Origin: Candidatus Omnitrophota bacterium
GTDB lineage: Bacteria > Omnitrophota > Gorgyraeia > Duberdicusellales > 4484-171
Length of the DNA stretch: 64,000 nt
Direction: 5' to 3'
Assembly: GCA_037146775.1 (NCBI GenBank)
Contig: JBAWWL010000001.1
Span: forward strand, 197,464-261,463
Shown in pieces: positions 5,518 to 43,268 of the stretch. Under the pieces are notes generated by a model, which did not search any database, was not told the DNA's origin, and was given only the letters and a program-made list of their open reading frames with translations. A program made the translations under genes and the position numbers. Positions within the stretch are counted from its first letter, which is position 1. Each line of letters opens with the position of its first letter.

Positions 5518-5519
5518 CA

Positions 5520-12826: not shown

Positions 12827-12910
12827 CTTTAGCGAGCATGCGCATTGACTTGTGACAACGTGTTGGATGAAAGGGTATGAATTTACACAACAACGCATGA
12901 GGTGATTAAG

Positions 12911-27183: not shown

Positions 27184-28055
27184 GCATGGGTGTGCAATGC
27201 CGGAATGTATCTATAAAAAAACATAATGATCGGCGTCACTGTCTTATGAATTCCTTAACGAAAAAATACACAAAACTTAAAAAAACTTTAAAGGGATTGG
27301 GTTCCGGTATTATCGCTTTTTCCGGCGGCCTCGACAGCGGCTTGCTGGCAAAAGTGGCACGTGACTGTTTAGGGGCAGAGGTTATCGCGGTAACGGCATG
27401 TTCTCCTACGTATCCCGCAGGCGATTTGCGCAAGGCCAAGATTATTGCGCGCGAAATAGGCATACGGCACCTCGTGGTCAAAACAGACGAATTCAAGGAT
27501 AAGAATTTTACGGCAAATTCCAGAAATCGTTGTTATTGGTGCAAGAAAAAACTTTTTTCGAAATTAAGGACACTGACGAGTCGTTACGGCTCCACCTATA
27601 TTATGGACGGTACCAATTTTGACGACAGAAGAGACCATCGCCCCGGGCTTATAGCCAACAAGGAATATAGCGTTAAAAGTCCTCTCTATGAATGCGGATT
27701 TACCAAAAAAGATGTTCGTAATTTGGCCAAGCTATTAAAGCTTTCTTTCTGGAATCAACCTTCGCAGTCATGTTTGTCATCAAGGATTCCTTTTGGGCAG
27801 GCGATTACTCTTTCGCGCATCGAACGGATTGGTCAGGCCGAGCGTATCTTGAGGAATTTTTTCGGCAATGATATCCTTTTGCGCGCCAGGGACCATAATG
27901 AGTTGGTACGTATTGAGCTGGAAAAGAAAGGGTGGACGCAGCTGGTAAAATCTGATATAAATAGATTGCTAAAAGGCCTAAAAAAGACAGGTTATACGTA
28001 CATAACTTTTGATCTGGAAGGATATATTCCGGCGGGCTTACGCAGGCAAAATTAA
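27180..28055 (+). CDS. LarE-like / TIGR00268-type PP-loop ATP pyrophosphatase
   Basis: PP-loop IIAFSGGLDSGLLA and the conserved CxxC...C region. ATGA overlap with mnmA. Confidence 0.6.
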   Translation: MSMGVQCRNVSIKKHNDRRHCLMNSLTKKYTKLKKTLKGLGSGIIAFSGGLDSGLLAKVARDCLGAEVIAVTACSPTYPAGDLRKAKIIAREIGIRHLVVKTDEFKDKNFTANSRNRCYWCKKKLFSKLRTLTSRYGSTYIMDGTNFDDRRDHRPGLIANKEYSVKSPLYECGFTKKDVRNLAKLLKLSFWNQPSQSCLSSRIPFGQAITLSRIERIGQAERILRNFFGNDILLRARDHNELVRIELEKKGWTQLVKSDINRLLKGLKKTGYTYITFDLEGYIPAGLRRQN

Positions 28056-28095
28056 CCGATTAAATGATTAACGGATCAGTTATTAAGGAGGGGCG

Positions 28096-28710
28096 ATGAA
28101 AGGCTTGGGTATTTTAGCTTTAGGATTTTTTTTACTCGTAGCGGCTGGTTGTTCATCCGCTCCGGTAGAGAGCCTTCTGATAGATAGCTTTGAAGGCGAG
28201 ATCAATAAACAGACTATAGACTACGGTACCTCCGAAGGAACGGTATTGATGGTGAGCGCGGATATACAACAGAAAGTATGCGGGGAGCAGTCGCTTAAGA
28301 TTGAGTATGATTTAAAACCTTCGGGTTATATGTGGATAGCGCGAGGATACAATTTAGACGTAAAAAGCGCGGCGCAGTGGCTTATTACACCGCAGCAGAT
28401 CGTATGGAAGAAATACAATGCTATTAGTCTGCAGATGTATGGGAGTAATTCCGGCAGTGTCGTCGCTTTTGATATAAAAGATGCCGGAGGAGAGGTCTGG
28501 CGGTTTTTGATTGATGACGATTTTAGCGGCTGGAAAGAAATTGTATGCCTATTTTCAGGATTTTTTGTGCGCAAAGATTGGCAACCAGAAACAGCACAAA
28601 AAAATGATACCATTGATTTTCCGATCATGAGTTTTCAGTTTGAACCGCGTTTACCCGGCAAGGGAATGTATTATTTTGATTGTGTAAAATTGGTACGTGT
28701 TAAAGAGTGA
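28096..28710 (+). CDS. hypothetical lipoprotein
   Basis: Strong RBS AGGAGG. Signal peptide with lipobox LLVAAGCSS. Confidence 0.55.
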   Translation: MKGLGILALGFFLLVAAGCSSAPVESLLIDSFEGEINKQTIDYGTSEGTVLMVSADIQQKVCGEQSLKIEYDLKPSGYMWIARGYNLDVKSAAQWLITPQQIVWKKYNAISLQMYGSNSGSVVAFDIKDAGGEVWRFLIDDDFSGWKEIVCLFSGFFVRKDWQPETAQKNDTIDFPIMSFQFEPRLPGKGMYYFDCVKLVRVKE

Positions 28711-28742
28711 TAAGGTTTGATTCGTAAAAAAGGAAAACAAGC

Positions 28743-29000
28743 ATGTCTGCTGAGTTTTTGGTCGCTAGCTGTCATTATATTGATGAAGTCGGCACTTTGA
28801 TTGGAGGAGAAGTCTTGAAAGGGCGGATTGAGGAGGGCGAATGGGGGGCAACCGCCTCTGGCAAAAAGTTTCTGGTGTCGAAAATGGAGTTTCAAGGCGA
28901 CCGCAGGGTCAGCGCGAGCGAGCATGAGAAGGTTAATCTCTATGCTATACATATTTCGCAAACGTATGTGCGGGCGGGAGACACTCTTTATTTTTATTAA
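28743..29000 (+). CDS. hypothetical small protein (85 aa); doubtful
   Basis: Only an ORF in the gap before the PqqD gene; weak RBS and no recognisable motif. Confidence 0.2.
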   Translation: MSAEFLVASCHYIDEVGTLIGGEVLKGRIEEGEWGATASGKKFLVSKMEFQGDRRVSASEHEKVNLYAIHISQTYVRAGDTLYFY

Positions 29001-29038
29001 GTACGCTGCGCATAGCTTATATCGCAAGGAGACACATA

Positions 29039-29329
29039 ATGGAAACTAAAAAGCAAAATCCGCTGGCGAACCCTTCTATCGTATTGCGCGAAGAATTCGA
29101 CGATTGGGCCCTTCTTTTTGACCCGGATACGAACGATATCTTCGCCATAGATCCGGTAGCGGTATTTATCTGGAAGCTTCTTAACGGGAAACGCAGCTGC
29201 AAGGCTATCCTGGAAGAATTAAAAGAGTGCTGCGACGATATACCCGAAGACGCCGGAACGTATGTGAATGATTTTATCCGGCAGTTGGAAGAGCGGGGTT
29301 TAGTTGGATATGAATCAACTCAAAACTGA
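29039..29329 (+). CDS. PqqD-family peptide chaperone (RiPP recognition element)
   Basis: 96 aa. Pattern VLREEFDDWALLFDPDTNDIFAIDPVAVFIWKLLNGKRSCKAILEEL...FIRQLEERGLV is typical of PqqD/RRE proteins. RBS AAGGAGA. Confidence 0.8.
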   Translation: METKKQNPLANPSIVLREEFDDWALLFDPDTNDIFAIDPVAVFIWKLLNGKRSCKAILEELKECCDDIPEDAGTYVNDFIRQLEERGLVGYESTQN

Positions 29330-30464
29330 TGAGGGTATAAAACTTGTACGTAGCCCGCGTTCCGTAGAGATCGCAATAACCAATACCTGCAATTTACGTT
29401 GCGCATACTGCAGCCATTTCACTAGCGCCGCTGATGTTCCTGGGGATGTTTCCCTCGAAGATTGGCTCTGTTTCTTCGAAGAATTAAACCGCTGTTCGGT
29501 ATTGAAAGTATGTTTGGATGGCGGGGAGCCGTTCCACAGAAAAGATATAATTCAGATTATCCAAGGTATCGTTGCCAACCGCATGCGTTTCTCTGTTTTA
29601 AGTAACGGTACTTTGCTGACTGACGAAATTGCTGCATTCTTGGCTTCAACGCGAAGATGTGATTTTATCCAAATTTCCCTGGACGGTTCTATTGCGACTA
29701 CGCATGATGCCCTGCGGGGTGAAGGCAGTTTTCGGAAAGCTCTCGCAGGCATCCAGGCGCTTCAGAAACACAACATACCGGTTGCGGTCCGCGTTACTAT
29801 CCATAAGCATAATTTGAATCAGCTTGAAGAACTTACGCATTTTTTATTAGAGGAAATAGGGCTGCGCAGTTTTAGTACCAATGCCGCCTCGTATATGGGT
29901 TTATGCCGCAAGAATTCCAGCCAAGTACAACTGACTGTCGGAGAGCGTTCCTTGGCAATGGAAAAACTTCTTACGCTTAGCAATAAGTATCCCAATCGTA
30001 TCAGTGCTATGGCAGGGCCTTTAGCCGAAGCGAAAGGTTGGCTTGAAATGGAAGAAGCCCGGCACACAAGAAAGGCTCAACCAGCCGGGCGAGGATATTT
30101 AACGGGCTGTGCAGGCCCGATGAGTAAAATTGCTCTTCGTCCCGACGGTGTCTTTGTTCCTTGTATTCTGTTGAGCCATATAGAACTAGGAAAGATGAAC
30201 AAAGATGATTTTCGAGCTATTTGGCAGTCTCATCCGGCGCTAAAAAGTTTACGCAGCCGGCATTTGATTCCGTTAAACGAATTCGCCTTTTGTAAAGATT
30301 GTCTTTATGTAGATTATTGTGCCGGCGGCTGTCCGGCCTTAAGCTATACTGTTGTGGGTAACATGAATCATCCCAATCCCGACACCTGTTTGCGCAAGTT
30401 TCTTGCGGAGGGCGGATATCTGCCGCGAAAAGGATTTTTGGAGGCTACGACAGTTGTATGTTAA
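29304..30464 (+). CDS. radical SAM/SPASM-domain peptide-modifying enzyme
   Basis: CxxxCxxC (CNLRCAYC) radical SAM motif. The C-terminus carries the SPASM cysteine array (GCAG...C, CKDCLYVDYCAGGCPA). Overlaps the PqqD end. Confidence 0.85.
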   Translation: MDMNQLKTDEGIKLVRSPRSVEIAITNTCNLRCAYCSHFTSAADVPGDVSLEDWLCFFEELNRCSVLKVCLDGGEPFHRKDIIQIIQGIVANRMRFSVLSNGTLLTDEIAAFLASTRRCDFIQISLDGSIATTHDALRGEGSFRKALAGIQALQKHNIPVAVRVTIHKHNLNQLEELTHFLLEEIGLRSFSTNAASYMGLCRKNSSQVQLTVGERSLAMEKLLTLSNKYPNRISAMAGPLAEAKGWLEMEEARHTRKAQPAGRGYLTGCAGPMSKIALRPDGVFVPCILLSHIELGKMNKDDFRAIWQSHPALKSLRSRHLIPLNEFAFCKDCLYVDYCAGGCPALSYTVVGNMNHPNPDTCLRKFLAEGGYLPRKGFLEATTVVC

Positions 30465-31612
30465 CTGATGAGCGTATCGGTACGTCTGTTGATTCAGAGA
30501 AAAAACAAACCCCTCTCTTACGCTACTTGTATTTTTATCTTATTGATGGTTGTAACCTTAATTGCCGGCACTGCTGGATTAATCCCCGTTCCCAAGTTAG
30601 CCCTGGTGCTATACCCGGCGTGTTTCTTGATTTCGATCTTTTTAAGTCAATCGTGCAGCAAGCAAAACCTTTTGGCCTTAGGGGGATAAAACTGACCGGC
30701 GGAGAACCATTACTGCACCCCCGTATCGTGGACATACTGGCATTTTTGCAGAAAGAGGAATTTTCGGTGGTTCTGGAGACAAACGCGGTTCTCTGCAGCA
30801 CTGAGTTTGCCAAAAAGCTCAGCGCCCTAAAAAATATTTTTGTCAGCGTAAGCGTGGATGGTTCTTGCAGCCAGACTCACGACTGGATACGCCAGAGCGA
30901 GGGAAGTTTTGCGGCCGCCATAAAAGGGATCCAAACTTTTGTTTCCTCCGGCATACGGCCGCAAATTATCATGACGATTATGCGCCGCAATAAAGGCGAG
31001 ATCGAGCAGCTTATAAAAATGGCTGAAGGCCTAGGTATCGAATCGGTTAAATTCAATATTACCCAGCCTACTGCCCGGGCTACCACATTGCAGGAAAATG
31101 GCGAAACGCTTACTATCGCAGAGTTGGTGTCGTTGGGCACCTGGATTGAGCGCGAGCTTTCGAAAAAGACCTCTTTACGTATTGTATATAGCCATCCTCC
31201 TGCGTTCCAGCCGCTTGGCAAATTGTATGCAACTACAAAAGATTTCTGTGGTGCCTGCGGGGTCTTGAATATCCTGGGAGTGCTTGCCAACGGTTCCTAC
31301 GCTCTATGCGGTATTGGACAGACGGTCCCTGAATTGGTGTTTGGCCATGCAGCCTCTGACAGGCTTATTGATGTGTGGCAGCATAACGCCGCGCTTACGG
31401 CATTGCGGCAAGGGTTACCGCATAAACTTGAAGGTATTTGTCAGGCTTGTTTAATGAAAAGCCGTTGCCGCGGCCATTGTATTGCCGAAAACTTCTCCAT
31501 GCACAAAAATTTGTGGGCAGGGTACTGGTATTGTGAAGCAGCATACCAACAAGGCCTTTTCCCTTTAAGCCGATTATCCCCAAAACATAAAAACGTTAGT
31601 GTGAGTAATTAA
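30458..31612 (+). CDS. radical SAM/SPASM-domain peptide-modifying enzyme (second paralogue)
   Basis: CNLNCRHC radical SAM motif and C-terminal SPASM cysteines (CGAC...C, CQACLMKSRCRGHC). ATGA-type overlap with the upstream rSAM gene. Confidence 0.85.
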   Translation: MLTDERIGTSVDSEKKQTPLLRYLYFYLIDGCNLNCRHCWINPRSQVSPGAIPGVFLDFDLFKSIVQQAKPFGLRGIKLTGGEPLLHPRIVDILAFLQKEEFSVVLETNAVLCSTEFAKKLSALKNIFVSVSVDGSCSQTHDWIRQSEGSFAAAIKGIQTFVSSGIRPQIIMTIMRRNKGEIEQLIKMAEGLGIESVKFNITQPTARATTLQENGETLTIAELVSLGTWIERELSKKTSLRIVYSHPPAFQPLGKLYATTKDFCGACGVLNILGVLANGSYALCGIGQTVPELVFGHAASDRLIDVWQHNAALTALRQGLPHKLEGICQACLMKSRCRGHCIAENFSMHKNLWAGYWYCEAAYQQGLFPLSRLSPKHKNVSVSN

Positions 31613-31621
31613 GGAGGAGAT

Positions 31622-31846
31622 ATGCCCAAAAAAATCAAATGGACCAAACCACTCTTGAGGCCGGTAGATGGGTTAAAGAATGTTAGAGAAGGGGTGTCCT
31701 TGTCGTGTAATGATGGTAGTTCTGATGCGACCTCATGTAGCATGGGCAATAGCTTTTCTGGTGGTGACTGTACATCTTATGGCTCGAGCTATACTCCTCC
31801 GGTTTGCCCTGGCTATGGCTCTAGCTATTATTGCCCTATGGGTTGA
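31622..31846 (+). CDS. candidate RiPP precursor peptide (74 aa; Lys-rich leader, Cys/Ser/Gly/Tyr-rich core)
   Basis: Strong RBS AAGGAGGAGAT before the ATG. The translation was checked codon by codon. Five Cys at positions 29, 39, 50, 62 and 71; the YGSSY motif occurs twice. Encoded immediately after the two rSAM/SPASM genes. Confidence 0.6.
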   Translation: MPKKIKWTKPLLRPVDGLKNVREGVSLSCNDGSSDATSCSMGNSFSGGDCTSYGSSYTPPVCPGYGSSYYCPMG

Positions 31847-31893
31847 TGGTTTGTCAAATTCAGTAGTAGAATATTTTAGTAGATACCATAAGT

Positions 31894-32805
31894 ATGGTTA
31901 CGCCCGTCTATACATTGTTCTTGGAAGAGGAACTAAAGTGGTATATAACCGCTACCGAAGACGCATCTTCCTGGATGCATAAATTTGCCGCTATCATGCA
32001 GCTAGAACCTTCTTCTACGAACAGGTTTTCGAAGCTTATTTTTACTACTCTGCAGGTAGACCAGAAATTATCTTCCGCATTAGCCCGCACCCTGCATGAT
32101 TGTTCCGGCGATATCTTCCCTCCACAAGACTGGTGGTTTGAGGATTTAGGCTTGGTTAAGTTTTGGCGTAACCAACATAGCGAGCACATTATTTGTCAGC
32201 TTTCCGGCCAGTCTATATATGAGGTTGATATCAACAAAATGTCCTTATCTCTTCATGTTATCTATCAAAAAGCCATAGAAAAAGAAGGCTTGCCCTTACA
32301 TGCCGGTCTAGTAGAAAAAGAAGAGATGGGTGTAGTACTGGCAGCGCCTGGTTCTACCGGTAAATCAACCTGTTGTCGCCGCATTCCTTTTCCTTGGCAC
32401 GCTTTATGCGATGATGAAACGTTGCTGGTGCGTGATGTCCAAGGAAGTTTCTACGCACACCCTTTTCCGACTTGGAGCGAGTATCTTTGTAAGCGTTCCG
32501 AGCGGACATGGAATGTAGAAAGAAGGATTCCTTTGTCGGCAATATTTTTTTTAGCCCAATCAGAGACCGAGGAGTTAGCGGCTATAACTCAGGCGGAATC
32601 GGCAGCATTTCTCCACCAGCTGTCTTTACAAATTTACGGACGCGGCTTAAAACGGCTCAAAGCCAGCGAAGGAAAGAAACAATCCCGCTGTTTGTTTGAT
32701 AATGCCTGTCAGCTGGCCAAATCTTTACCGGCATATATGTTGCGTGTCAGCCGGGAGGGTAGATTCTGGGAGAAAATGGAGGAAGCTCTTGAAAGAGTCT
32801 GTTGA
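31894..32805 (+). CDS. HPr-kinase-like P-loop protein (HprK-related / ScmC-like)
   Basis: P-loop APGSTGKST in the position of the HprK C-terminal kinase-domain Walker A. About 300 aa. Sits inside the rSAM/PqqD cassette. Confidence 0.5.
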   Translation: MVTPVYTLFLEEELKWYITATEDASSWMHKFAAIMQLEPSSTNRFSKLIFTTLQVDQKLSSALARTLHDCSGDIFPPQDWWFEDLGLVKFWRNQHSEHIICQLSGQSIYEVDINKMSLSLHVIYQKAIEKEGLPLHAGLVEKEEMGVVLAAPGSTGKSTCCRRIPFPWHALCDDETLLVRDVQGSFYAHPFPTWSEYLCKRSERTWNVERRIPLSAIFFLAQSETEELAAITQAESAAFLHQLSLQIYGRGLKRLKASEGKKQSRCLFDNACQLAKSLPAYMLRVSREGRFWEKMEEALERVC

Positions 32806-33394
32806 CGTTAATTTTGCTTATTTTGGTGCAGGCCCCAGCATGAAGCCTACGATATGTGCGCATGACCTTCTTTCTGTTTTTGCGTACAACGAGAGAAAAA
32901 TTATCCGCGGCGATGTGGTGGTTTTTATATCTCCCTTGAATGGCCGAAAAATTGCTCACCGGGTTATTTGCGCCGGAAAGCAGCATATCAGGACTAAGGG
33001 TGACCACAATCGCTATGTGGATCCCTGGTTGCTTACCCCGCAGGATATTATTGGTCAGGTAGCCTATGTACAAAGAGGAAAAAAGAGAATTCGTATTTAT
33101 GGTGCAGTGCTGGGAGAGCTTTATGTAACCAAGATAAAAATAATGTGTTTTGTGCGCAAAAGCGCATCTTTTATTTTTGGTATGTGTTACCGTTATATAG
33201 CCCAAAAAAGTCTGTTCTACCGTTTGAGTAAATTTTTTCTTAAACCGCGGCTGGTGGTATTTAACCGGCCTGGAGGAGAAGACCTGCAGTTGGTGCTCGG
33301 CCATAGCTTTGTCGTTGGCCGCCGTATGCCCGGAAAAAACACATGGCATATCCGCCGGCCGTTTCGTCTTCTGGTAGATAAAGCATTCCAGTAA
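32696..33394 (+). CDS. S24/S26-family Ser-Lys peptidase (signal peptidase I-like); start likely near 32789
   Basis: GAGPSMKPT (the SMxPT serine box) and KGDHNRY (the Lys/GDxNR box) of signal peptidase I/LexA-type peptidases. No N-terminal TM anchor. The longest ORF overlaps the upstream gene, so the true start is probably TTG 32789 or nearby. Confidence 0.55.
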   Translation: MIMPVSWPNLYRHICCVSAGRVDSGRKWRKLLKESVDVNFAYFGAGPSMKPTICAHDLLSVFAYNERKIIRGDVVVFISPLNGRKIAHRVICAGKQHIRTKGDHNRYVDPWLLTPQDIIGQVAYVQRGKKRIRIYGAVLGELYVTKIKIMCFVRKSASFIFGMCYRYIAQKSLFYRLSKFFLKPRLVVFNRPGGEDLQLVLGHSFVVGRRMPGKNTWHIRRPFRLLVDKAFQ

Positions 33395-33456
33395 TTTTGT
33401 AACAAGGCTTTCCTTCTCGCCCGGCATTTCTTTATGTCATCTTTTTTCCAAAACAC

Positions 33457-34653
33457 ATGAGCGTAATGCATAAAAGAATTACCTGGTTAGTCTGTGGTAA
33501 TTTTAACGGTTATCTCGATGACGGCGGCACCAACAGTACGTTGACGTTGTTGCGGGAATTACAGAAAAGAGGCGCTTCCTGCAGTGTGCAAGTTTTTCTT
33601 GGCTTGGGAAGTGTTGCGTCTCTGACGGCGTATGTTGCAAGAGTGAGAGATTTTGCCCACAGTGGCAGGATCATAATAAAAAAAGGCTACGTATCGTTTT
33701 ACGTAAAAAATATTCTTATTGAAGCACGCATCGTCAAGGAGAATATTTTTAAGCTGTATCATACGCGTGACGAAAAAGCGTTACGTGCCCTCACGCTCCA
33801 CATAAAAGCAATACTACGAATGACGCGGCCGGATATTATTATTACCAGCCAGGAAGATATTTTTTCTTTACGGGCGGCCGATGAATCAGGGATTCCTTGT
33901 TGCCATATTTTTTCGTCCGCGTGTTTTAAATTCCTCGATACGTTCAATATATACAAAAATGAATTCCGCGCATGCTTGGCAAAAACACTGGTAGTTACGT
34001 GTTCTTGTTTTCTAAAAAGAGATATAAGGAATATCTGGAATAAAAGAGCAATTTTATTACCGGCGCTGATTGACCGTATTTCATGCGTGGCCAAGAAGAG
34101 AAACCCGCGTTACATAACTTTCGTCAACTGTCATCCTCATAAGGGGGCAGTGATATTCTGGAATATAGCCAGAAAATTGCCGCATAAAAGATTTTTGGTA
34201 ATCGATAACCACGGATTTTTTCCGCTTAAGTCACCTCTGAAAAATGTCACTGTATTGCGTCGGCAATCAGACATGAAAAAAGTCTACCGGCTTACAAAAA
34301 TATTGCTTTTTCCCTCTCTTGTGGAGGAAAGCTATGGCATGGTTCTCGTTGAGGCGATGGCGAACGGTATTCCGGTTATCGCTAATCGCATAGAAGGCAT
34401 AAAAAATACTTTGCAAAAGGCAGGATTCCTTGTAGATATCAATCAAAGAGATAAAGATAAGAAAGATTATTTTTATAATTCCCTCTACCACATGAAAACA
34501 TATCAACAGTATGTGGCGTTAATTACCATGTTAGATTCCGATAGTGCGGTGTATAATAAAGCTTCGAAAAAAGCTCTGCAGGAAGCAGAAAGGATTATGA
34601 GCAGGCAGCGTCAAGCATTGGAGGGTTTCGCGGATCTTATCGCAAAGCGATAA
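33457..34653 (+). CDS. glycosyltransferase family 4 (GT1-type fold)
   Basis: C-terminal donor-binding motif EESYGMVLVEAMANGIPVIANRIEGI. Confidence 0.7.
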   Translation: MSVMHKRITWLVCGNFNGYLDDGGTNSTLTLLRELQKRGASCSVQVFLGLGSVASLTAYVARVRDFAHSGRIIIKKGYVSFYVKNILIEARIVKENIFKLYHTRDEKALRALTLHIKAILRMTRPDIIITSQEDIFSLRAADESGIPCCHIFSSACFKFLDTFNIYKNEFRACLAKTLVVTCSCFLKRDIRNIWNKRAILLPALIDRISCVAKKRNPRYITFVNCHPHKGAVIFWNIARKLPHKRFLVIDNHGFFPLKSPLKNVTVLRRQSDMKKVYRLTKILLFPSLVEESYGMVLVEAMANGIPVIANRIEGIKNTLQKAGFLVDINQRDKDKKDYFYNSLYHMKTYQQYVALITMLDSDSAVYNKASKKALQEAERIMSRQRQALEGFADLIAKR

Positions 34654-34717
34654 GGTTCTCTAACGTTGGCGTAGGCGTGAGTATGTGTACAGGGTGTAAA
34701 ATGTTTTTCGTTAACTG

Positions 34718-36451
34718 ATGAAAATAAGAAATATAGTCTGGCGTCGTTTTCTCCCGTATTTATACAGGTATCGGAAGCTACAGGTTGCTGTTATGGTTTT
34801 AAGCCTCCTGGCTATTCCGCTTGCCCTTTTGAGCCCTTACCTTGCGAAGCTGGTTATCGACAAGGCGTATATGGGCAAAGACCTGGCGTTATTTTTTATT
34901 CTTGCGGTAATAGGCGGTTTGGTCTTTGTGGTTACTGCTCTTATAAGCTCTTTGAATGATTATCTTTTAATGCGTATGAACCGCCGGGTTTGTTTTGATA
35001 TGGGAAGGGATATCTTCAGGCATCTCCAGAATCTGTCTTTAAGCTTTTTTGACACCAAGTCAGCCAGTGAACACATATATAAAATACATAATGATGTAAA
35101 TATCGTAAGTGCTTTTCTTTGTAACGCGTTGCCTCAAGGTGTCACCCTTGTCGTGCGATTTTTATGTATCTTCATCGTGGTGTTGCATCTTAACTGGAAA
35201 CTCGCTCTTTTTGCATTTTTTATGATTCCTGTAAGCTTCATCCACCCCTGTTTTTTCCGCAAACTGTTAAAAGAATCGACTACCGGAATGATAGAGAAAT
35301 CTCAAAGAATGTTCAGGTATCTTTGTGAAGTTTTTAGCCACACGCATCTGGTAAAAGCTTTTGGCAAAGAGGAATGCGAGACGCATCGGTTTGAGGTTGT
35401 TTCTCTGGAAAGATTCAACGTGGAGGCTACGCGCGATAAGTTGTTGAGTATAAGCGCTTTTTCCGGTTCTGTCCTAAACAAAATTATCAATGGCTTTATT
35501 GCCCTATATGGAGGGTATCAGGTTATTACCGGCGCTATGACGCTTGGTAGTTTCAGCGCGATAATGATTTATTCAGCCCAGCTTACAGGGCTTTCCAAAT
35601 TATTAGCCAAATTTTACGAAAATATCGCCATTAATTCGGTTTCTGTAGAGCGGTTGATTGAAATTTTAGATACCAAGCCAAAGATCGCAAACAAGAAAGA
35701 CGCTTTAGATTATCAAATCTTAAAGGGGAGTATCGACTTTAAAGACGTCTCTTTTGGGTATAAGGAAAACAGTTTTGTTTTGAAAAGTATGAATTTTGAA
35801 ATTACTCCTGGCTCGAAAATTGCCATTACCGGCCCTTCGGGGTGCGGGAAAACCACTTTGCTCTCGCTTATGTTAAGGATATATGACGTTAAAGACGGGG
35901 CTGTTTTGATCGATGGAATGGACATCAGGGATATGAGAATAGAGGCGCTTACGTCGCAAGTCGCCATAGTACTCCAGGAGCCTTTTTTATGGAACGATAC
36001 CATAGCGTGTAATATTCTGTATGGTATGGAGGGTGCCACTCAAAAGCAGATGGTTGAAGCGGCAAAAATTGCCGAGATACACGAGTTTATCGTGAGCCTT
36101 GAATGCGGTTACGATAGCGAAATCGGTGAAATGGCTTGTTTGCTTTCCGAAGGCCAAAAACAGCGTCTGGCCATTGCGCGTGCTGTTATAAAACGGCCGG
36201 CTGTCCTGCTTTTTGACGAAGCCTTTTCTTCTATAGATTCCGAAACCGAAAACAAAATCATAGATAATATTAATGGGCATCTTGCGGGTACCACTGTTAT
36301 AGTTGTTTCCCATAGAATTTCTACTATAAAAAGAATGGATGCGGTTTATTTCTTTGAGGGCCATTCCCATCTTGTGCGAAGTGCTCATTCCGAGCTTGTA
36401 AAAAGCAACGCGGCGTACAAGGAATTATTTACCGGTCAGCACGCCTCGTAA
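34718..36451 (+). CDS. ABC exporter, fused transmembrane and ATP-binding domains
   Basis: Six N-terminal TM helices, then Walker A GPSGCGKTT, signature LSEGQKQRLAIARA and Walker B LLFDEA. Confidence 0.85.
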   Translation: MKIRNIVWRRFLPYLYRYRKLQVAVMVLSLLAIPLALLSPYLAKLVIDKAYMGKDLALFFILAVIGGLVFVVTALISSLNDYLLMRMNRRVCFDMGRDIFRHLQNLSLSFFDTKSASEHIYKIHNDVNIVSAFLCNALPQGVTLVVRFLCIFIVVLHLNWKLALFAFFMIPVSFIHPCFFRKLLKESTTGMIEKSQRMFRYLCEVFSHTHLVKAFGKEECETHRFEVVSLERFNVEATRDKLLSISAFSGSVLNKIINGFIALYGGYQVITGAMTLGSFSAIMIYSAQLTGLSKLLAKFYENIAINSVSVERLIEILDTKPKIANKKDALDYQILKGSIDFKDVSFGYKENSFVLKSMNFEITPGSKIAITGPSGCGKTTLLSLMLRIYDVKDGAVLIDGMDIRDMRIEALTSQVAIVLQEPFLWNDTIACNILYGMEGATQKQMVEAAKIAEIHEFIVSLECGYDSEIGEMACLLSEGQKQRLAIARAVIKRPAVLLFDEAFSSIDSETENKIIDNINGHLAGTTVIVVSHRISTIKRMDAVYFFEGHSHLVRSAHSELVKSNAAYKELFTGQHAS

Positions 36452-36512
36452 CGGAAGGTTGTCGCTGGTTGTCTGTGCTACCGTTCTGTTGTTCCGGAGG
36501 ATGAATTAGCTT

Positions 36513-37685
36513 ATGACGTACATGAAAAGATCGCAAACCATACCGGCTCAATATAGCGCACACATGGTCAATGCCGAAAAGTTTGTGGTGCTGTGCGTGC
36601 AGTATAATGGCGATGAATCTTTGCGGGAACAGGCAATGGCGTTCATCGCCGAGGGGATTGACTGGGAATATTTTGTTGATATTAGCGTAGCGCAAAAGAT
36701 TGCCGTCATGGTATATAACGTAATATACAAGATCGTACCACCCGAATGTATTCCTTGCTTTGTTTTTGACGCGCTGCGCAACGCATACCTTTATATAGTA
36801 TCGAAAACGCTTCTAAAACATACAGAGACCCTAAAGCTTTTAAGATTGTGTGCTCAGGCGCAAGTAAAGGTCGTGCCGCTTAAAGGGACTATTTTGGCGA
36901 AACGTCTGTACGGCCAAGTGCACCTGCGTGACTTAAGTTCGGATATTGATTTATTTATCGAAGAAAAAGATAAATTATGCGCGAGAGATATACTTGCCAG
37001 AGAAGGGTATGTTTTGCGTTTACGGGGTAACGACGATTATTCCGGGTATAATGAGTTTATGAAAGCAGGTTTTGGCAGTATTGACTTACAATGGAAGATA
37101 GTCGAGACTATTGATTGCAGCCGTTCCAGGCTAGAAGGTTTTTGGAGAGCCGTACAAAAAACGGAGGAGGAAGACATAACTTTTAGTGTGTTTCAAACGG
37201 AAGAATTATTGTTGTATCTTTGCGCCCACAGCATGAGCAAACATTGTTTCGGCCAGTTACGGCATATCTGCGATATACATCAGCTTTTGGTAGTGGAGCA
37301 TGCAGCGATCGACTGGAACCGCATCGTTGCGAAGGCAAAAGAATGGAATCTTTTAACTTCCTTGTATTGCGCGCTGTCGATGCGGCAATACTTTTTTAAA
37401 ATTTCTGTTGCGCCCGAAATAAAGAAAGTTTTAAAAATATCAAGGTTCAAGATTATGTTGCTAAAAGTATTTACGGATGAATTGGTCTTCTTCCGGCGGC
37501 AAAGCTTCCGGCGGCGCTTGGTAGACAGGTTTCTGGGTTTCGTTTTTTTTAGATTCGTTGAGGCGCGCAGCTTGAGAGATTACTTCTTTTTTGTTTTTCC
37601 TCCCAGGGAAGCGCTGCAAAGTAAAAGTTATCTTACCATGTTTTGGCGAGGATTGGGAAAGCTTACTTCGGTATTTGCACGATAA
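36513..37685 (+). CDS. nucleotidyltransferase-like protein (uncharacterised NTase family often seen in RiPP clusters)
   Basis: Central VVPLKGTILAKRLYG...DLSSDIDLFI region resembles pol-beta-type NTase GS...D.D motifs. The family assignment is from memory and unverified. Confidence 0.45.
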   Translation: MTYMKRSQTIPAQYSAHMVNAEKFVVLCVQYNGDESLREQAMAFIAEGIDWEYFVDISVAQKIAVMVYNVIYKIVPPECIPCFVFDALRNAYLYIVSKTLLKHTETLKLLRLCAQAQVKVVPLKGTILAKRLYGQVHLRDLSSDIDLFIEEKDKLCARDILAREGYVLRLRGNDDYSGYNEFMKAGFGSIDLQWKIVETIDCSRSRLEGFWRAVQKTEEEDITFSVFQTEELLLYLCAHSMSKHCFGQLRHICDIHQLLVVEHAAIDWNRIVAKAKEWNLLTSLYCALSMRQYFFKISVAPEIKKVLKISRFKIMLLKVFTDELVFFRRQSFRRRLVDRFLGFVFFRFVEARSLRDYFFFVFPPREALQSKSYLTMFWRGLGKLTSVFAR

Positions 37686-37866
37686 TAACTTTTAAATATG
37701 GTGTATATATTATACAGGTAGTATTGAGTCGTGAGTATTGAGTATATAGTAGATAGTGAAGACAAAGGGAAATGGCAGCTATAATCAATTACTATATTTT
37801 AGTATATTCTAATATACCTTATAATAGTTTAGTATATCTTAATGTGTCAATTAAATCTAAAACATA

Positions 37867-37922
37867 TTGACAGAATTAATTTTAGTGAGTATACTTTAAT
37901 ATGTGTTGATATACTTTAATAT
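37867..37922 (+). promoter_or_regulatory. candidate sigma70 promoter (TTGACA-N17-TATACT) overlapped by two ATACTTTAATAT direct repeats (putative operator)
   Basis: -35 at 37867-37872 and -10 at 37890-37895. The 12-bp repeats sit at 37891-37902 and 37911-37922. More direct repeats (AGTATTGAGT x2, TTTAGTATAT x2) lie upstream in the 289-bp AT-rich gap. Confidence 0.4.
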
Positions 37923-37974
37923 AGTTTAGTAATGTCTCGGGGCAGTGAGTAATTTTTGTTAAAAGATTTTACAA

Positions 37975-38178
37975 ATGTTTTCGACTGATCACGATAAAAT
38001 TTATCGGACTAAAGAGGTGCTAAAAATCGTAGGAATATCCCGGGCTACGCTTTATAACTGGTTTCGGGATGGGAAGATAAGGGAAGTGGCGCGGGATAGA
38101 AATGATTTTCGTATTTTTACCGAAAGTGATGTACAGGTAATCTTGTCGTATAAAAATATGGTGAAAGCGCCGGTATGA
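37975..38178 (+). CDS. small HTH DNA-binding protein (MerR/excisionase-like HTH_17)
   Basis: 67 aa. LKIVGISRATLYNWFRDGKI is a typical MerR-type HTH. Overlaps the PilZ gene start. Confidence 0.55.
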   Translation: MFSTDHDKIYRTKEVLKIVGISRATLYNWFRDGKIREVARDRNDFRIFTESDVQVILSYKNMVKAPV

Positions 38179-38540
38179 TATTTGGAAAAAAATATAGCGA
38201 GAGGCGGCAATACAAGAGAATTGATTGTTACTGTTTGATTCGCTATAGAGCGTTGAACAGCCAGGGTGCATACACGGAGAATCTTGCTTCAATACGTAAT
38301 ATCAGCGGCGGCGGTCTCCTGTTTAAATCACGGGAGTATTTACCGGTAGGAACGCAATTAGAAGTAAAAATAAATTTTGTAGCCCTGGAAAAACCAATTT
38401 TTGTTTTAGCAAGGGTAGTGCGTTTTGAGGCGAATAAAAAGAATGCGGGCAGCTATCGCATAGGGATTTTTTTTACTACTATTAAGGACCAGGATCGTAA
38501 AATCATAACTCAATTTACCGAGTCTGTGGAAGAGAGCTGA
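38175..38540 (+). CDS. PilZ-domain c-di-GMP-binding protein
   Basis: RxxxR (RRQYKR) and D/NxSxxG (NISGGGLLF) motifs. Confidence 0.65.
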   Translation: MIFGKKYSERRQYKRIDCYCLIRYRALNSQGAYTENLASIRNISGGGLLFKSREYLPVGTQLEVKINFVALEKPIFVLARVVRFEANKKNAGSYRIGIFFTTIKDQDRKIITQFTESVEES

Positions 38541-38541
38541 A

Positions 38542-40641
38542 ATGGCAGTTGCGGGCGACATAAAAAATAAGCTTGAACAGGAAATCAGAGTCACGTTGCG
38601 TGATTATTGGGAGATTTTTTATAAGCACCGTCTCGTTTTTTTGATAACTTTTGCGATAACATTGGCAATCGGTACTGTTGAGGTATTTTTTGTTATACCG
38701 CTGCGATATAAGGCGACAGCCGCCGTCATTGTTGCACCTCCCTCTGTCCAGTTAATATCACAGCGGCAAATGTTATTAAGGGAGAATTATGTTACCGCAG
38801 ATGAAGTTGAGCTGATGCGTAGCGGTGAGTTGATGCAAAAACTTGCGCTTTTTTTAAAAAATGACAAGGAATACGATTTGAATGTAAGCGCTAACGATCT
38901 TAAAAATATAATAGATATTTATCCGCGGCCGAGAACCGGCATTGTAGATATTGAGGCAAAGAGCGCATCTTCGCCTATCGAATGTTTTTATATAGTAAAA
39001 GGCTTACTTCAGGTATATCAAAAAGACGGGGAAGAACGTAGAGAGAATATAATCAAGCGTACCTATGATGACTTGAGCACTCAGCTGGGGCAGAAAAGAA
39101 AAGAATTGGAAGAGGCGGAACGCAAGCTCACCAAATTTGTTATTGACCATGAGATTATCGCCCGCGGTATCGAGGCTGGAGAGGAGGCCGTTAATCAAAA
39201 GGAAAGCGGCAAGACTACGCAGGAAAATGAATCAACAATAAATGCGAAATATTTAACTTTGAAATCTCAACGTATTGATGCGGAAAACTTTTTGAGCGAT
39301 GTAAAGAGGTATAGAAAAGATAGCGGCGATGTTGCGGCCTTGGTTTTTATCGCCAAAAAGGAACCCAGCCTGGTAGATTTGAAATTGCGCGATAAACTTT
39401 ACGAAGCAGAGCGAGAACTTTCTAAGCTTCTTCTTACTCAGAGCGAGCTGCATCCTGATGTTATCAAGGCAAAAGGCCAGTTAGATGAGGAGAATAAAAA
39501 AATAAGCATGGAGCTGGATAGGGCGGTGCAAAGCTTGGAAATAAGTATTGTTTCGGTGCGAGCGGAAGAGAATAAATTGCGCAATCTGATTAAGGATGGT
39601 TTAAGCGAGACGATGGTTGAGTATTCTGCGTTCAGGCGGGAAGTGGAAGTGAAAAAAAATATTTATGATAATTTTATTCAGGAGCTTCAACAGCTTGAAT
39701 TAATTTCGAAACTTTCCCGGGTGCCATTTTTAAAGATTCTACGCGCACCAACGCTTCCCGATGGCCCCACGAATCCCCGTTCTGTCTCGATGATTTTTTC
39801 TTTTTTCATGTCGCTTCTTTTTTCTGGGGGGCTAGTATTGCTGCTTGAGCATGTCAATGTCAGCTTAGAAAACGTAGAAGAAGTGGAAGACCTTTTGGGT
39901 TTGAGCGTTTTAGCTACTGTGCCCTTCTGGAAAGGGCACAGCCGCGAGGATGATGTGGTGCAGCCAGGGGGAAGGCATGTGCTTGGCCTTATCACGCTAC
40001 GCCATCCAAAGTCTATTATGAGCGAAGCGTTCCGAATGTTGCGCACAAATATTAAATTTGTCAGTGTTGATAAACAGATAAAGACGATTCTGATAACCAG
40101 CGTGCTTCCTAAAGAGGGAAAATCCATGGTTTCGGCGAATCTGGCAGCGATTATGGCCAGGGCCGGAGAAAGAGTGATAATTGTGGACGCAGATTTACGA
40201 AAACCAATGGTTCACCAGTATTTTGATATAGATAATGCAAAAGGATTAAGTACTCTCTTGGCAAGTAACGATTCTTTGGACGATATCGCTCTATGCGATA
40301 CGGAGATAGAAAACCTTAAAGTGTTACCTTCGGGTCCGATTCCTCCTAACCCGAATGAACTGTTGGCAACGTATCGGTTGGAAGCAATTTTGTCAAAGTT
40401 AAGCGAGCAGGCTGATTTGGTAATCGTCGACTCAACCCCAGTGTTGGCGGTGAGCGACAGTTTAATCGTAGCCGCTAAAACCGATGCAACGCTCTTGGTG
40501 CTTTTTGCCAGCAAAACTCCTAAGCGCGCCGCGCAGAGGACAGAACTTTTGCTCAAAAATTCAGGAGCAAAGATATTGGGCAGCGTCTTTAATGGTGTTC
40601 AAACCATAAAAGGCGGCTATTATTATAACTATAACTATTAG
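38542..40641 (+). CDS. polysaccharide co-polymerase / tyrosine autokinase (Wzc-like BY-kinase, fused)
   Basis: Two TM helices flank a coiled-coil periplasmic domain. Walker A PKEGKSMVSANLA, A' VDADLRKP and B LVIVDSTP. C-terminal Tyr cluster GGYYYNYNY. Confidence 0.8.
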   Translation: MAVAGDIKNKLEQEIRVTLRDYWEIFYKHRLVFLITFAITLAIGTVEVFFVIPLRYKATAAVIVAPPSVQLISQRQMLLRENYVTADEVELMRSGELMQKLALFLKNDKEYDLNVSANDLKNIIDIYPRPRTGIVDIEAKSASSPIECFYIVKGLLQVYQKDGEERRENIIKRTYDDLSTQLGQKRKELEEAERKLTKFVIDHEIIARGIEAGEEAVNQKESGKTTQENESTINAKYLTLKSQRIDAENFLSDVKRYRKDSGDVAALVFIAKKEPSLVDLKLRDKLYEAERELSKLLLTQSELHPDVIKAKGQLDEENKKISMELDRAVQSLEISIVSVRAEENKLRNLIKDGLSETMVEYSAFRREVEVKKNIYDNFIQELQQLELISKLSRVPFLKILRAPTLPDGPTNPRSVSMIFSFFMSLLFSGGLVLLLEHVNVSLENVEEVEDLLGLSVLATVPFWKGHSREDDVVQPGGRHVLGLITLRHPKSIMSEAFRMLRTNIKFVSVDKQIKTILITSVLPKEGKSMVSANLAAIMARAGERVIIVDADLRKPMVHQYFDIDNAKGLSTLLASNDSLDDIALCDTEIENLKVLPSGPIPPNPNELLATYRLEAILSKLSEQADLVIVDSTPVLAVSDSLIVAAKTDATLLVLFASKTPKRAAQRTELLLKNSGAKILGSVFNGVQTIKGGYYYNYNY

Positions 40642-40651
40642 TACTACGGTA

Positions 40652-41506
40652 ATGAAAAAAAACAGGGTGGATAATACTTGTAAGATACTAGCGCTGGCGG
40701 CTATGGTTTGTATGCTTGCTTGTGTTCATTTGCCTCAGCACAAAGTTTCTTCGATTGATACCGGCAAGGCCGCAAGTGCTAAAAAGGAAACAAAGGATGT
40801 TAAGGCAAAAGAGGTTGTCGAAGTGGAATTTGTGGCGGCTAAAGATCTCGATGAAGATTCGTGGGCGGCAGAGAACTATTTAGTTGAAATAGGCGATGTT
40901 TTGGAGATTTCGGTATGGCAGATCCAGGAGTTACAACGGGAAGTCGTGGTGCGGCCCGACGGAAAGATTTCGTTTCCGCTCATTGGAGATGTCGTGGCGG
41001 TAGGAAGGACTATTGACGAATTACGGCAGGATATTGTTGATAAAATTAAAATTTATATCAAGGTACCGCAGGTTTCTATCAATATCATAGAGTTTGGTGG
41101 TAAAAAGGTGGCGGTATTGGGAGAGGTGGGCAGTCCTGGCCTGGTAAGATTTAACGGTCCAACTACTTTGGCTGAAGCTCTCAGCTTGGCGGGAGATCTT
41201 ACCTACCAAGCCAATAAAGACAGGGTGTTTATTTTACGTACCATGCCCGGCGGTAAGCCGGTAGTAATTTATGCCAATGCCAACAAAATGCTGAAAGAAG
41301 GAGATTTGCAGGAGAACGTTTTTGTCCGTTCCGGCGACATCGTATATGTGCCCAGGTCTTTTATCCATGATTTTACCTATTTTATGGATAACGTATTTGC
41401 TAAAATCGTAGGTTACGGTGAGACGTACTATGGCGATACCTGGAAGCGATTCTATGGAGGCACTACCAAAACCTGGAAATACAAGAGCCAGATGACCCTT
41501 AGGTAA
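40652..41506 (+). CDS. polysaccharide export outer-membrane lipoprotein (Wza-like, Poly_export + SLBB)
   Basis: Lipobox MLAC. Poly_export motif region (GDVLEISVWQ...PDGKISFPLIGDVVAVGRTIDEL) followed by an SLBB domain. Confidence 0.8.
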   Translation: MKKNRVDNTCKILALAAMVCMLACVHLPQHKVSSIDTGKAASAKKETKDVKAKEVVEVEFVAAKDLDEDSWAAENYLVEIGDVLEISVWQIQELQREVVVRPDGKISFPLIGDVVAVGRTIDELRQDIVDKIKIYIKVPQVSINIIEFGGKKVAVLGEVGSPGLVRFNGPTTLAEALSLAGDLTYQANKDRVFILRTMPGGKPVVIYANANKMLKEGDLQENVFVRSGDIVYVPRSFIHDFTYFMDNVFAKIVGYGETYYGDTWKRFYGGTTKTWKYKSQMTLR

Positions 41507-41510
41507 TAGT

Positions 41511-43268
41511 ATGCTGCAGAAAATGAAAAGATTTATCGAAGGATTTAAACGCAAAAAGTTATTTTTTACTATCCCTTTTTTCTTCATTCTATTTATTGCT
41601 TTGATCGCTACCGTCATGAACAAACCGTATTATCGCGTAGTGACTACCATAAAGGTGGAAAATTCATTTGGCGTAGAGCTGTTGCAGCCAGAAATTATTT
41701 CTAAGGTATTGAGCAACACCGGTTTCTTGGACAGGAAAGACCCGGCGCGTTCAATCGCGTGGTTTAAAAGAATGGTGGCAGTAAACAAAGATACTTCTTC
41801 GGGGTTAATGGAGGTTTCTCTTACGGGTCACGATCAAACTATCCTCACACGCTTGACACGGGTATTGGCGCACGCGTATGTAGACGAGATTAATACAAGA
41901 AAAGAGCAGATGAGGCGCAGCGCGATACAGAAAAAAGAACAGGAATTGGAAGAATACAAAAATAATCTTAAGCATGAGCTGGCCGGTATTAAGAAAAAAT
42001 TGGAAGAGTACGAAGATCAGATGGAGAAGATCCGTGAGGAAGAAAAAGGAACTGCTTCAAAGAAGGAACCTCTGCGCGCGCAGTTGGCCGGAATGGAAAG
42101 CGAACGTGCTGATCTTTTACGTATTTACACCACTGCTCACCCAGATGTGATCCGACTTGACTCGGAAATCGCGCTCATAAAAGAAAAGATAAATACAATT
42201 CCCGAGGAACCATCGGGGAAGCTTAAGCTTGAACGAGAGCTGAAAGAATACCGGAGTTTATACGAAATTCTTCAGTCAAGATGGGATGAGGTCAGCCTCA
42301 AAAAAATAGACGATTTAAAGGATATCAAGGGTGGAGCGAGTATTATTTCTCCCGCTCAAGCGCCTTCGGCGCCGGCGGACATGATGATGAAGGAATTTAC
42401 GTTTTTGTTCGGCCTGATTATTGCGATAGTCGTGGGGCTATTTTCTGCTCTTACCGCGATATTTCTGGATACTTCGTTATTGACGGTGGAAGAATTTATT
42501 TTTTATACGCATCTTCCGGTTCTTGGTGCCATACCACTGGTCCGGGCATTTCAAAATAAACATATGCAAGGCAGCAGCAGTCTGCTCTTGGATTACGAGG
42601 GTAATAATGCGATAATAGAGCCGTATCGGATTCTGCTCTCGCACGTCCAGTCAACACTTTTTAACGAGCAGCTCAACGGTGTGTCCGTTTTGGTAACGAG
42701 TTCTGTAAGGGGGGAAGGTACTTCGACGACTGCCGCCAATCTTGCGTTGGTCATGGCACGCTCGGGCAAGCAGGTGTTATTGGTAGACGCGAACTTCTCT
42801 CACTCTTGCCTGCATCGGTTGTTTGGCATTGTGACGGTTATCCCCGGGTTTACCGATATCTTGCACCAGGGGGTCGCCTTGGATAGCGTTACTAAGGACG
42901 TAACCGATATAGTATTGGGGAAGGTTAGTTTAAATGCGGTGATCCAGTTTAAGGGGTTAGACCGCCTCAAGATTATTACCCGTGGTTCACCTCTTGCGGA
43001 TGCGAGCGGTTTATTACGCTCTGAGCGGATGGATGCGTTTTTAACCGAATTAAAATCAAAATTTGATTGTATCGTTTTTGATGGTCCGGCGATTATGGCC
43101 AGTGCTGACAGTGGGATTCTTGCTTCCAAGTGCGACGCTACCTTGCTTGTGTACGGCGCGGGCAAAACTCCCAAGGCGATGCTTAAAAATGCCGTGACTC
43201 GGTTGGAAGCTATCCAGAAAAAGAGGCAACTTCCGCTGAAAGGGGCGGTTCTCAACCAATGTATTTAG
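41511..43268 (+). CDS. Wzc-like chain-length determinant with a degenerate (probably inactive) kinase domain
   Basis: Same topology as Wzc. Walker A reads RGEGTSTTAANLA, so the Lys is replaced by Thr. The A' motif is degenerate (VDANFSHS) and there is no Tyr-rich tail. Confidence 0.6.
   Translation: MLQKMKRFIEGFKRKKLFFTIPFFFILFIALIATVMNKPYYRVVTTIKVENSFGVELLQPEIISKVLSNTGFLDRKDPARSIAWFKRMVAVNKDTSSGLMEVSLTGHDQTILTRLTRVLAHAYVDEINTRKEQMRRSAIQKKEQELEEYKNNLKHELAGIKKKLEEYEDQMEKIREEEKGTASKKEPLRAQLAGMESERADLLRIYTTAHPDVIRLDSEIALIKEKINTIPEEPSGKLKLERELKEYRSLYEILQSRWDEVSLKKIDDLKDIKGGASIISPAQAPSAPADMMMKEFTFLFGLIIAIVVGLFSALTAIFLDTSLLTVEEFIFYTHLPVLGAIPLVRAFQNKHMQGSSSLLLDYEGNNAIIEPYRILLSHVQSTLFNEQLNGVSVLVTSSVRGEGTSTTAANLALVMARSGKQVLLVDANFSHSCLHRLFGIVTVIPGFTDILHQGVALDSVTKDVTDIVLGKVSLNAVIQFKGLDRLKIITRGSPLADASGLLRSERMDAFLTELKSKFDCIVFDGPAIMASADSGILASKCDATLLVYGAGKTPKAMLKNAVTRLEAIQKKRQLPLKGAVLNQCI

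Follow-up and report, generated by a model that had tools for sequence, protein, structure and literature searches.

A stretch of 64,000 nucleotides from a Candidatus Omnitrophota genome (contig JBAWWL010000001.1, positions 197,464 to 261,463), hereafter called the window, carries nine open reading frames (ORFs) on the + strand within positions 29039-37685. We consider it highly probable that these genes form a SynChlorMet (Scm) cassette for the biosynthesis of a RiPP, a peptide made on ribosomes and modified after translation. SynChlorMet is defined by the TIGRFAM/NCBIfam models TIGR04248-TIGR04252 (ScmD, ScmC, ScmE, ScmF and ScmA, respectively) and by Pfam PF27840 (ScmC). Four proteins of the window scored above the curated equivalog cut-offs of NCBI: ScmD (29039..29329; TIGR04248, 111.4 bits against a cut-off of 100), ScmE (29304..30464; TIGR04250, 581.5 against 400), ScmF (30458..31612; TIGR04251, 506.9 against 400) and ScmC (31894..32805; TIGR04249, 297.5 against 125). 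Between ScmF and ScmC lies an ORF of 74 amino acids (31622..31846), the ScmA precursor described below. All five named Scm components are therefore present and adjacent. The cassette was assigned to SynChlorMet because the four curated cut-offs were passed and the precursor is syntenic. An initial annotation of this DNA had proposed a RiPP-type cassette of nine co-directional genes resembling SynChlorMet; all nine ORFs were found on one strand, every domain assignment was upheld by profile searches, and the four equivalog models agree with the proposed family.

With the window cassette, a family already known to annotation pipelines gains a member, and the kind itself is experimentally uncharacterized. 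In the literature search, no publication on the SynChlorMet cassette and no characterized product were found. At NCBI, a protein with 100% identity to ScmC of the window is named "SynChlorMet cassette protein ScmC" and carries PF27840. It comes from a Candidatus Omnitrophota metagenome-assembled genome, contig CAZTHQ010000009.1 of GCA_964613555.1.

ScmD matched PF05402 with 52 bits and, more weakly, the HPr-rel-A PqqD and lasso PqqD chaperone models. Judged from its sequence, ScmD is a PqqD-family leader-recognition protein (RiPP recognition element, RRE). ScmE and ScmF are radical SAM (rSAM)/SPASM enzymes with 23% identity to each other. They matched Radical_SAM with 77 and 84 bits and SPASM with 31.7 and 21.7 bits (cut-off 21.5), respectively. 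The CX3CX2C motif is located at residues 29-36 of ScmE and 32-39 of ScmF. The SPASM Cys residues of ScmE are at 269, 287, 330, 333, 339, 343 and 362, and the C-terminal Cys residues of ScmF are at 264, 267, 284, 328, 331, 337, 341 and 359. The full 7-Cys SPASM array that had been ascribed to both proteins is present in each.

The next-best family model for ScmE gave just 143.8 bits. Other rSAM models (WgkB, heme, mycofactocin, and sactipeptide and ranthipeptide maturases) remained far under their cut-offs. No characterized thioether-forming family was matched: PapB scored 82 bits (cut-off 340), StsB 103 (625) and AlbA 77 (850). A role of the two enzymes in anaerobic sulfatase maturation or in PQQ or mycofactocin synthesis, which the initial annotation had named as an outcome that would overturn its reading, was rejected, since the Scm models were ahead by more than 350 bits.

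The 74-amino-acid ORF had been put forward as a candidate precursor rich in Cys, Ser, Gly and Tyr. An AGGAGG ribosome-binding site is located just 5' of its ATG. The leader contains KIKWTKPLL and thus the WxxPxL motif (WTKPLL). In the core, five Cys residues are spaced by 10, 11, 12 and 9 residues, and a Gly comes within 3-4 residues after each (C-x2-3-G); in four cases the sequence goes on as G-S/N-S. The core reads CNDGSSDATS-CSMGNSFSGGD-CTSYGSSYTPPV-CPGYGSSYY-CPMG. Its five units are unusually Tyr-rich, and two of them have C-x3-G.

A leave-one-out profile built from 81 precursors of other loci detected the window peptide with 38.7 bits (E 4.5e-10), and this peptide was the sole match among the 838 ORFs of the window. 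In a sister locus from a JGI metagenome (L081), which has the same gene order, an ortholog occupies the same position with 60/74 identical residues (81%) and all five Cys kept. Absence of the small ORF from syntenic loci would have refuted the initial annotation; the ORF is conserved there. Just one further relative, 47% identical (P0122), was obtained by a library-wide HMMER search. On the basis of synteny, the ribosome-binding site, the leave-one-out profile and the conserved ortholog, the ORF is identified from its sequence as a divergent ScmA precursor. The initial annotation had listed the ORF as a candidate; at the family level the precursor is not an open question, since NCBIfam already holds the ScmA model TIGR04252, which matches the peptides of several other loci (e.g., 39.1 bits for that of L009).

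ScmC has many homologs. At E<=1e-5, 984 protein clusters matched, and 200 stretches of species-representative genomes encoded ScmC, from which 80 ScmC loci were kept for the locus analysis. Small ORFs of a common plan stand beside ScmC in other loci, mostly between ScmF and ScmC. A leader K-Y-E-K-P-x-L-v-x-L is followed by a core rich in Gly, Ser, Thr and Ala with regularly spaced Cys. With the leader profile, 59 of the 80 loci yielded such peptides, 87 in total and at most six in any one locus. We further defined 40 full-context loci, with at least 5 kb upstream and at least 6 kb downstream of ScmC. A precursor was found in 23 of the 25 full-context loci carrying both rSAM enzymes.

The distance between consecutive Cys residues in the family peaks sharply at 10 residues and is 9-11 residues in 242 of 368 intervals. 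Gly stands at +3 after 76% of the Cys residues, positions +4 and +5 are mostly Ser, Gly, Thr or Asn, and position +6 is often Ala. From this spacing and these preferences, the sequences therefore indicate that the family core is a decapeptide repeat, C-x-x-G-[S/T/G/N]-[S/G/T/A]-[A/P]-x3. Core length and Cys number (1-19) are hypervariable, and the cores often occur in multiple copies. Small residues are found at -2 and -4 before the first Cys across the family. In the leaders, [YWF]xxPx[LIVMF] is present in 85 of the 87 peptides.

The window cassette resembles other SynChlorMet loci in its adjacent co-directional genes and in the ScmA-type precursor beside the rSAM genes and ScmC, as in most of the other loci analyzed. 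It differs in the ScmA peptide itself, which is Tyr-rich, has C-x3-G instead of C-x2-G in 2 of its 5 repeats, and is missed by TIGR04252. It also differs by the insertion of a glycosyltransferase gene and by an extra 85-amino-acid ORF 5' of ScmD, both of which it has in common only with L081.

ScmC is a two-domain P-loop protein, and both its fold and its profile matches are those of HPr kinase/phosphorylase (HPrK/P) and PEPCK. The AF2 model is confident (pLDDT 87.8, pTM 0.87). When the ScmC profile was compared with the PDB, HPrK/P was the sole match, a weak one that covers the His, P-loop and DD segment. The motif H136...G153/G156-K157-S158...D173-D174 aligns to the His, the P-loop and the DD of HPrK/P. 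In 28 ScmC sequences most motif residues are invariant, including H136, G156-K157-S158 and D173. The motif spacing mirrors that of the lasso-peptide kinase BsfK, in which H148...G163/G166/G168-K169-S170...D186-D187 was found to be needed by mutagenesis (PMC10368454). The residue that BsfK phosphorylates is an internal Ser of its precursor, and the reaction is faster with its RRE (PMC10368454). By analogy, ScmC is a predicted peptide kinase of the PEPCK/HPr-kinase fold, and it represents a separate family within the HPr-kinase superfamily. The HPr-kinase-like P-loop protein of the initial annotation was thus recovered by fold and by motif, with weak similarity to HprK_rel_A.

Several ScmC loci lack rSAM genes. 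Those with Cys-rich cores are L061, L062, L066, L076 and L077. In a Syntrophales locus (L062, positions 1-12200), three ScmC paralogs stand with several Cys-rich precursors of 113-128 amino acids and no rSAM gene, and an S26 peptidase, an ABC exporter, a GT2, NTP_transf_5 and a GT4 are also encoded. Because this locus holds both a GT2 and a GT4, glycosyltransferases recur with the ScmC/NTP_transf_5 pair. In L066 and L077 (~9350-10963), a lone ScmC is located beside a Cys-repeat precursor, with the same 420-amino-acid PAS histidine kinase downstream in both; L077 also has an M50 peptidase-HlyD fusion on the - strand (6430-9081) upstream of ScmC. Four other rSAM-less cassettes (L040, L048, L072 and L074, ~9000-14800 each) have ScmD, ScmC, an ABC exporter and NTP_transf_5, except that no ABC match was obtained for L072. 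The precursors of L040, L048 and L072 have a KxKFEKPxL-type leader and a Pro/Asp/Gly-rich core without the Cys repeat. The L040 and L048 peptides terminate in DKWKSRQW, and no precursor was found in L074. In these four loci, ScmC appears to act in a sister system that does without radical SAM chemistry.

ScmC is followed by a peptidase gene (32789..33394), which is found in 33 of the 40 full-context loci. Among the genes counted there, it is the one most tightly linked to ScmC; ScmD follows with 31/40 and the two rSAM enzymes together with 25/40. The peptidase scored just under the cut-offs of its best models: the best curated one is archaeal signal peptidase I (TIGR02228, 43.5 bits against 51.85), and PF10502, which most homologs carry, gave 22.7 bits against 22.9. 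In the NCBI record the protein is called an S26 family signal peptidase. Its fold is that of LexA and the signal peptidases, with Ser as the nucleophile and His as the general base. The invariant residues in the alignment of cassette peptidases are the Ser of G-x-S-M-x-P, His-Arg, T-x-G-D and one more Asp. At the position of this His, a bacterial signal peptidase has its general-base Lys and human SEC11C has a His; the window protein and every family member in the alignment have His there. The bacterial Ser-Lys subtype was rejected on this ground.

Transmembrane-like segments were found only in the ABC protein among the cassette proteins; therefore the peptidase is predicted to be cytoplasmic. 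Judged from its sequence, it is a soluble Ser/His S26 enzyme of the ER/archaeal/SipW type. The initial annotation had described a cytoplasmic S24/S26 Ser-Lys peptidase; the S26 likeness and the predicted location stand, whereas the Ser-Lys dyad does not. With the ER and archaeal signal peptidases (SEC11, archaeal SPase I and Bacillus SipW), the cassette enzyme shares the fold, the Ser of SMxP, His-Arg and (T)xGD-x5-D. In contrast to them, it has no membrane anchor and carries an extra conserved C-terminal domain of ~100 residues. Its predicted substrate is a cytoplasmic RiPP leader, not a secretory signal peptide, and it is sometimes fused to NTP_transf_5. The public call for the window protein (P0130, 184 amino acids) begins at the Met just after the invariant Ser of G-P-S-M-K-P-T and is probably truncated. 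The true start is probably TTG 32789 (201 amino acids) and not 32696; from this TTG the invariant Ser is kept and the overlap with ScmC is 17 nt.

Three further genes complete the cassette. The GT4 glycosyltransferase gene (33457..34653) matched PF00534 with 50 bits and PF13692 with 49.5 bits. A fused ABC exporter with a transmembrane and a nucleotide-binding domain (34718..36451) matched PF00664 with 123.7 bits and PF00005 with 100.4 bits; its public gene call begins at 34793. The NTP_transf_5 gene (36513..37685) encodes a nucleotidyltransferase-fold protein that gave 162.1 bits with PF14907 (cut-off 31.2). These results agree with the earlier identification of a glycosyltransferase, a fused exporter and a nucleotidyltransferase-like protein, as did those for the PqqD protein. 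Since the exporter lacks a C39 peptidase domain, the S26 enzyme is the sole protease of the cassette.

Of the 40 full-context loci, 19 have NTP_transf_5, 19 have the ABC exporter and 2 have a GT4-like gene. The peptidase, the glycosyltransferase and the nucleotidyltransferase had together been taken to make this cassette a distinct variant. By these counts the peptidase and the nucleotidyltransferase are ordinary members, and only the GT4 is rare. It sits between conserved cassette genes, and in L081 it again follows the peptidase, with 66/114 identical residues over the part on the contig. The GT4 is a rare lineage-specific accessory. Clustering of neighbor genes, in which single linkage merged some families through fusion proteins and overlapping ORFs, gave no widely conserved partner beyond ScmD, ScmE, ScmF, ScmC, the S26 peptidase, NTP_transf_5 and the ABC exporter.

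Fusions of the peptidase with NTP_transf_5, 550-680 amino acids long, were found in L002 (11348-13384) and L046 (10849-12840) and in the proteins P0126 and P0127. They suggest that the two enzymes act together on the same substrate. In NTP_transf_5, K124-G125, D144 and D146 are invariant and form the nucleotidyltransferase motif G-x(n)-DxD. A PDB sequence search with the NTP_transf_5 profile gave chance-level matches only. In pseudomycoidin synthesis, the HprK-like PsmK makes phospho-Ser, and the addition of a hexose to that phosphate requires PsmN, which has a DxD motif and is described as an "uncharacterized NTP transferase" (PMC6993621). NTP_transf_5 is thus a predicted tailoring enzyme analogous to PsmN.

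From the gene content, family membership, folds, motifs and co-occurrence determined here, we infer the chemical steps of the pathway as follows. ScmD probably binds the lasso-type W/YxxPxL leader of ScmA. ScmE and ScmF would act on the five core repeats; the modification that we favor, with slightly less than even confidence, is the formation of Cys-derived thioether crosslinks, one per Cys. By analogy with the lasso kinases, ScmC might phosphorylate a Ser/Thr hydroxyl of the precursor, a step for which the balance of the evidence is about even. We propose only tentatively that NTP_transf_5, aided here by the GT4, could add a sugar or a nucleotide-derived group, on the model of PsmK and PsmN in pseudomycoidin. 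The S26 peptidase would then, somewhat more plausibly than otherwise, cut off the leader in the cytoplasm, and the product is likely to be exported by the ABC transporter.

This scheme draws on two groups of characterized RiPP systems. YxxPxL stands at -17 to -12 of lasso-peptide leaders and is read by a PqqD-like RRE (PMC10368454). The phosphorylated and glycosylated lasso clusters (paeninodin pade, pseudomycoidin psm and Bradymonas bsf) share this leader motif with the Scm cassettes, as WTKPLL here and as Y/WxxPxL in the family. Both also have a PqqD-family RRE, the kinase motif H...GxxGxGKS...DD, a DxD protein of nucleotidyltransferase fold and an ABC exporter without a protease domain. In contrast, the Asn-synthetase-like cyclase C and the transglutaminase-like protease B2 of the lasso clusters are not among the nine cassette proteins. 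Two rSAM/SPASM enzymes and the S26 peptidase stand in their place, and ScmC is under the HprK_rel_A cut-off. A lasso cluster was rejected as the identity of the locus for lack of a B2 or C enzyme; the PP-loop gene in the neighborhood is LarE (277.6 bits; cut-off 150).

The second group comprises the ranthipeptide and sactipeptide systems (PapB/freyrasin, CteB/SCIFF and AlbA/subtilosin), which also have rSAM/SPASM maturases with full auxiliary-cluster Cys residues and a Cys-repeat precursor. PapA contains repeated C-x3-D units, formally similar to C-x2-G-S/T of the Scm core. In these systems there is one rSAM enzyme, whereas Scm has two dissimilar ones and a separate RRE protein, and the maturase models are far under cut-off for the Scm enzymes. 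By analogy, the Scm cassette would work like a cross in which an rSAM thioether RiPP pathway meets the tailoring half of the phosphorylated lasso pathways.

The most extended form of this idea is a hybrid RiPP class. It would have a lasso-type chassis (YxxPxL leader, PqqD RRE, HPr-kinase-like kinase, NTP_transf_5 and ABC exporter) in which the lasso protease and cyclase are replaced by two rSAM/SPASM enzymes and by a soluble Ser/His signal-peptidase homolog as the leader protease. Its product would be a decapeptide-repeat peptide with one staple per repeat and phospho-linked sugars, GT4-extended in this lineage. As a whole, we regard this form as rather doubtful.

Several observations weigh against the interpretation given so far, at the level of the precursor, the kinase or the chemistry. 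TIGR04252 (cut-off 35) did not match the window peptide even at E<=10. The count of the leader motif (85 of 87 peptides) is circular in part, since the profile seeds had been chosen with the help of that motif. The small-x-small pattern before the first Cys of the family is not obvious in the window peptide (...EGVSLS-C); a signal-peptidase-style prediction of its cleavage site was dropped for this poor fit, and no site is predicted for the window ScmA. By fold, ScmC matches PEPCK at least as well as HPrK, and against HprK_rel_A (TIGR04352) it gave 25.2 bits, over the P-loop region only, with a cut-off of 200. ScmC also occurs in loci without any rSAM gene, some of them with Cys-free cores (L040, L048 and L072), so its role is independent of crosslinking. 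PsmN was likened to the NTP_transf_5 of the window by its description and its DxD motif, not by PF14907 membership. Furthermore, the crosslink type, the kinase substrate and the role of the nucleotidyltransferase are analogies.

Three other explanations were weighed. The ORFs could belong to two adjoining unrelated units, an Scm core (ScmD, ScmE, ScmF, ScmA, ScmC and the peptidase) and the GT4, ABC and NTP_transf_5 genes of an exopolysaccharide (EPS) locus. Genes of EPS type (PilZ, Wzz/tyrosine autokinase and Wza-like Poly_export) do lie directly downstream, GT4 enzymes and MsbA-like ABC exporters are common in EPS loci, and GT4 homologs are rare beside ScmC (2/40). However, 19/40 full-context loci, from many phyla, have NTP_transf_5 with ScmC, 19/40 likewise have the ABC exporter, and four proteins join NTP_transf_5 to the cassette peptidase. 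The GT4 lies between conserved partners and is kept after the peptidase in L081. In addition, a promoter-like site with 11 of 12 consensus positions (37867-37895) and a 289-nt AT-rich gap part the cassette from the HTH/PilZ/EPS genes, although promoter counts overall are at chance level. The division into two units is very improbable, and the nine ORFs are treated here as one SynChlorMet cassette.

The other two explanations concern the fate of the Cys residues. In a lanthionine-like route, ScmC would phosphorylate the Ser/Thr at +4/+5, elimination would follow, and Cys would add to the dehydro residue, while the rSAM enzymes would carry out, for example, epimerization or C-C/C-O links at Tyr. 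Class II-IV lanthipeptide synthetases activate Ser/Thr via phosphorylation. Each repeat pairs a Cys with a Ser/Thr 4-5 residues away, and the rSAM-less loci named above with Cys/Ser-rich precursors would suit such a route. However, the clustered neighbor genes include no recurrent lyase or cyclase candidate, characterized peptide kinases of the HPrK family leave a stable phosphate, and Gly or Asn stands at +4/+5 about as often as Ser/Thr; the route is very improbable. Even less credible is a product with free Cys, a metal-binding or redox peptide (metallophore or cofactor-like) whose other residues are modified by the rSAM enzymes. The regular Cys array in a flexible core rich in Gly, Ser and Thr, and the sub-cut-off matches of ScmE and ScmF to AhbD, NirJ, MftC and PqqE, are consistent with it. 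However, those scores are far under cut-off and are exceeded by the Scm models, the hypervariable and often multi-copy cores (1-19 Cys) show the pattern of secreted RiPPs and not of cofactors, and a dedicated exporter and a protease are present. Thioether crosslinks are thus retained as the preferred reading of the Cys repeats.

The initial annotation had reported many ATGA overlaps between the cassette genes. Just three overlaps were found, of 26 nt (ScmD/ScmE), 7 nt (ScmE/ScmF) and 17 nt (ScmC/peptidase); the remaining junctions are gaps of 9-71 nt. Upstream of the cassette lie mnmA, LarE, a CBM11 lipoprotein gene and the 85-amino-acid ORF (28743..29000, + strand), which stands directly 5' of ScmD and has no family match. 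Its ortholog in L081 (66-323) is at the same position, directly 5' of ScmD, with 65/85 identical residues, and the ORF is not present in the other 80 ScmC loci. Neither Pfam nor NCBIfam gave a match to it, and the PDB gave no meaningful one. The ORF may be a lineage-specific accessory, and its membership in the cassette is uncertain.

Downstream of the AT-rich gap are genes for a small HTH protein (excisionase/MerR-like), a PilZ protein, a Wzz/GNVR tyrosine autokinase (TIGR01007, 189.5 bits) and a Wza-like Poly_export protein. The same region, 37975-45069, also holds genes for a second ParA-like ATPase, an AAA_22 ATPase and an HD-domain protein, and it looks like a c-di-GMP-linked EPS locus. 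A promoter and terminator scan of 28000-38600 gave counts equal to the shuffled expectation, and no operon boundaries were taken from it. An Rfam scan of the whole window gave no match. The G+C content is 0.32 over the 1 kb at 22001-23000, against a window average of ~0.43. GC skew is positive in all 1-kb bins of the window, and the long ORFs are nearly all on the + strand.

The ScmC loci span Desulfobacterota, Omnitrophota, Aminicenantes, Nitrospirota, anammox bacteria, Chlorobi and methanogenic archaea. The Scm cassette is thus widespread in anaerobes, and the window copy is a good experimental target, not a new kind of system. Its version is compact, with nine genes on one strand and one precursor, and is suited to heterologous expression. 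The comparative analysis yields hypotheses on the leader reader, the residues of the core repeat, a kinase/nucleotidyltransferase pair parallel to PsmK/PsmN, and a Ser/His S26 leader protease. If they hold, the RiPP scaffold would be new, and so would this use of the signal-peptidase fold.

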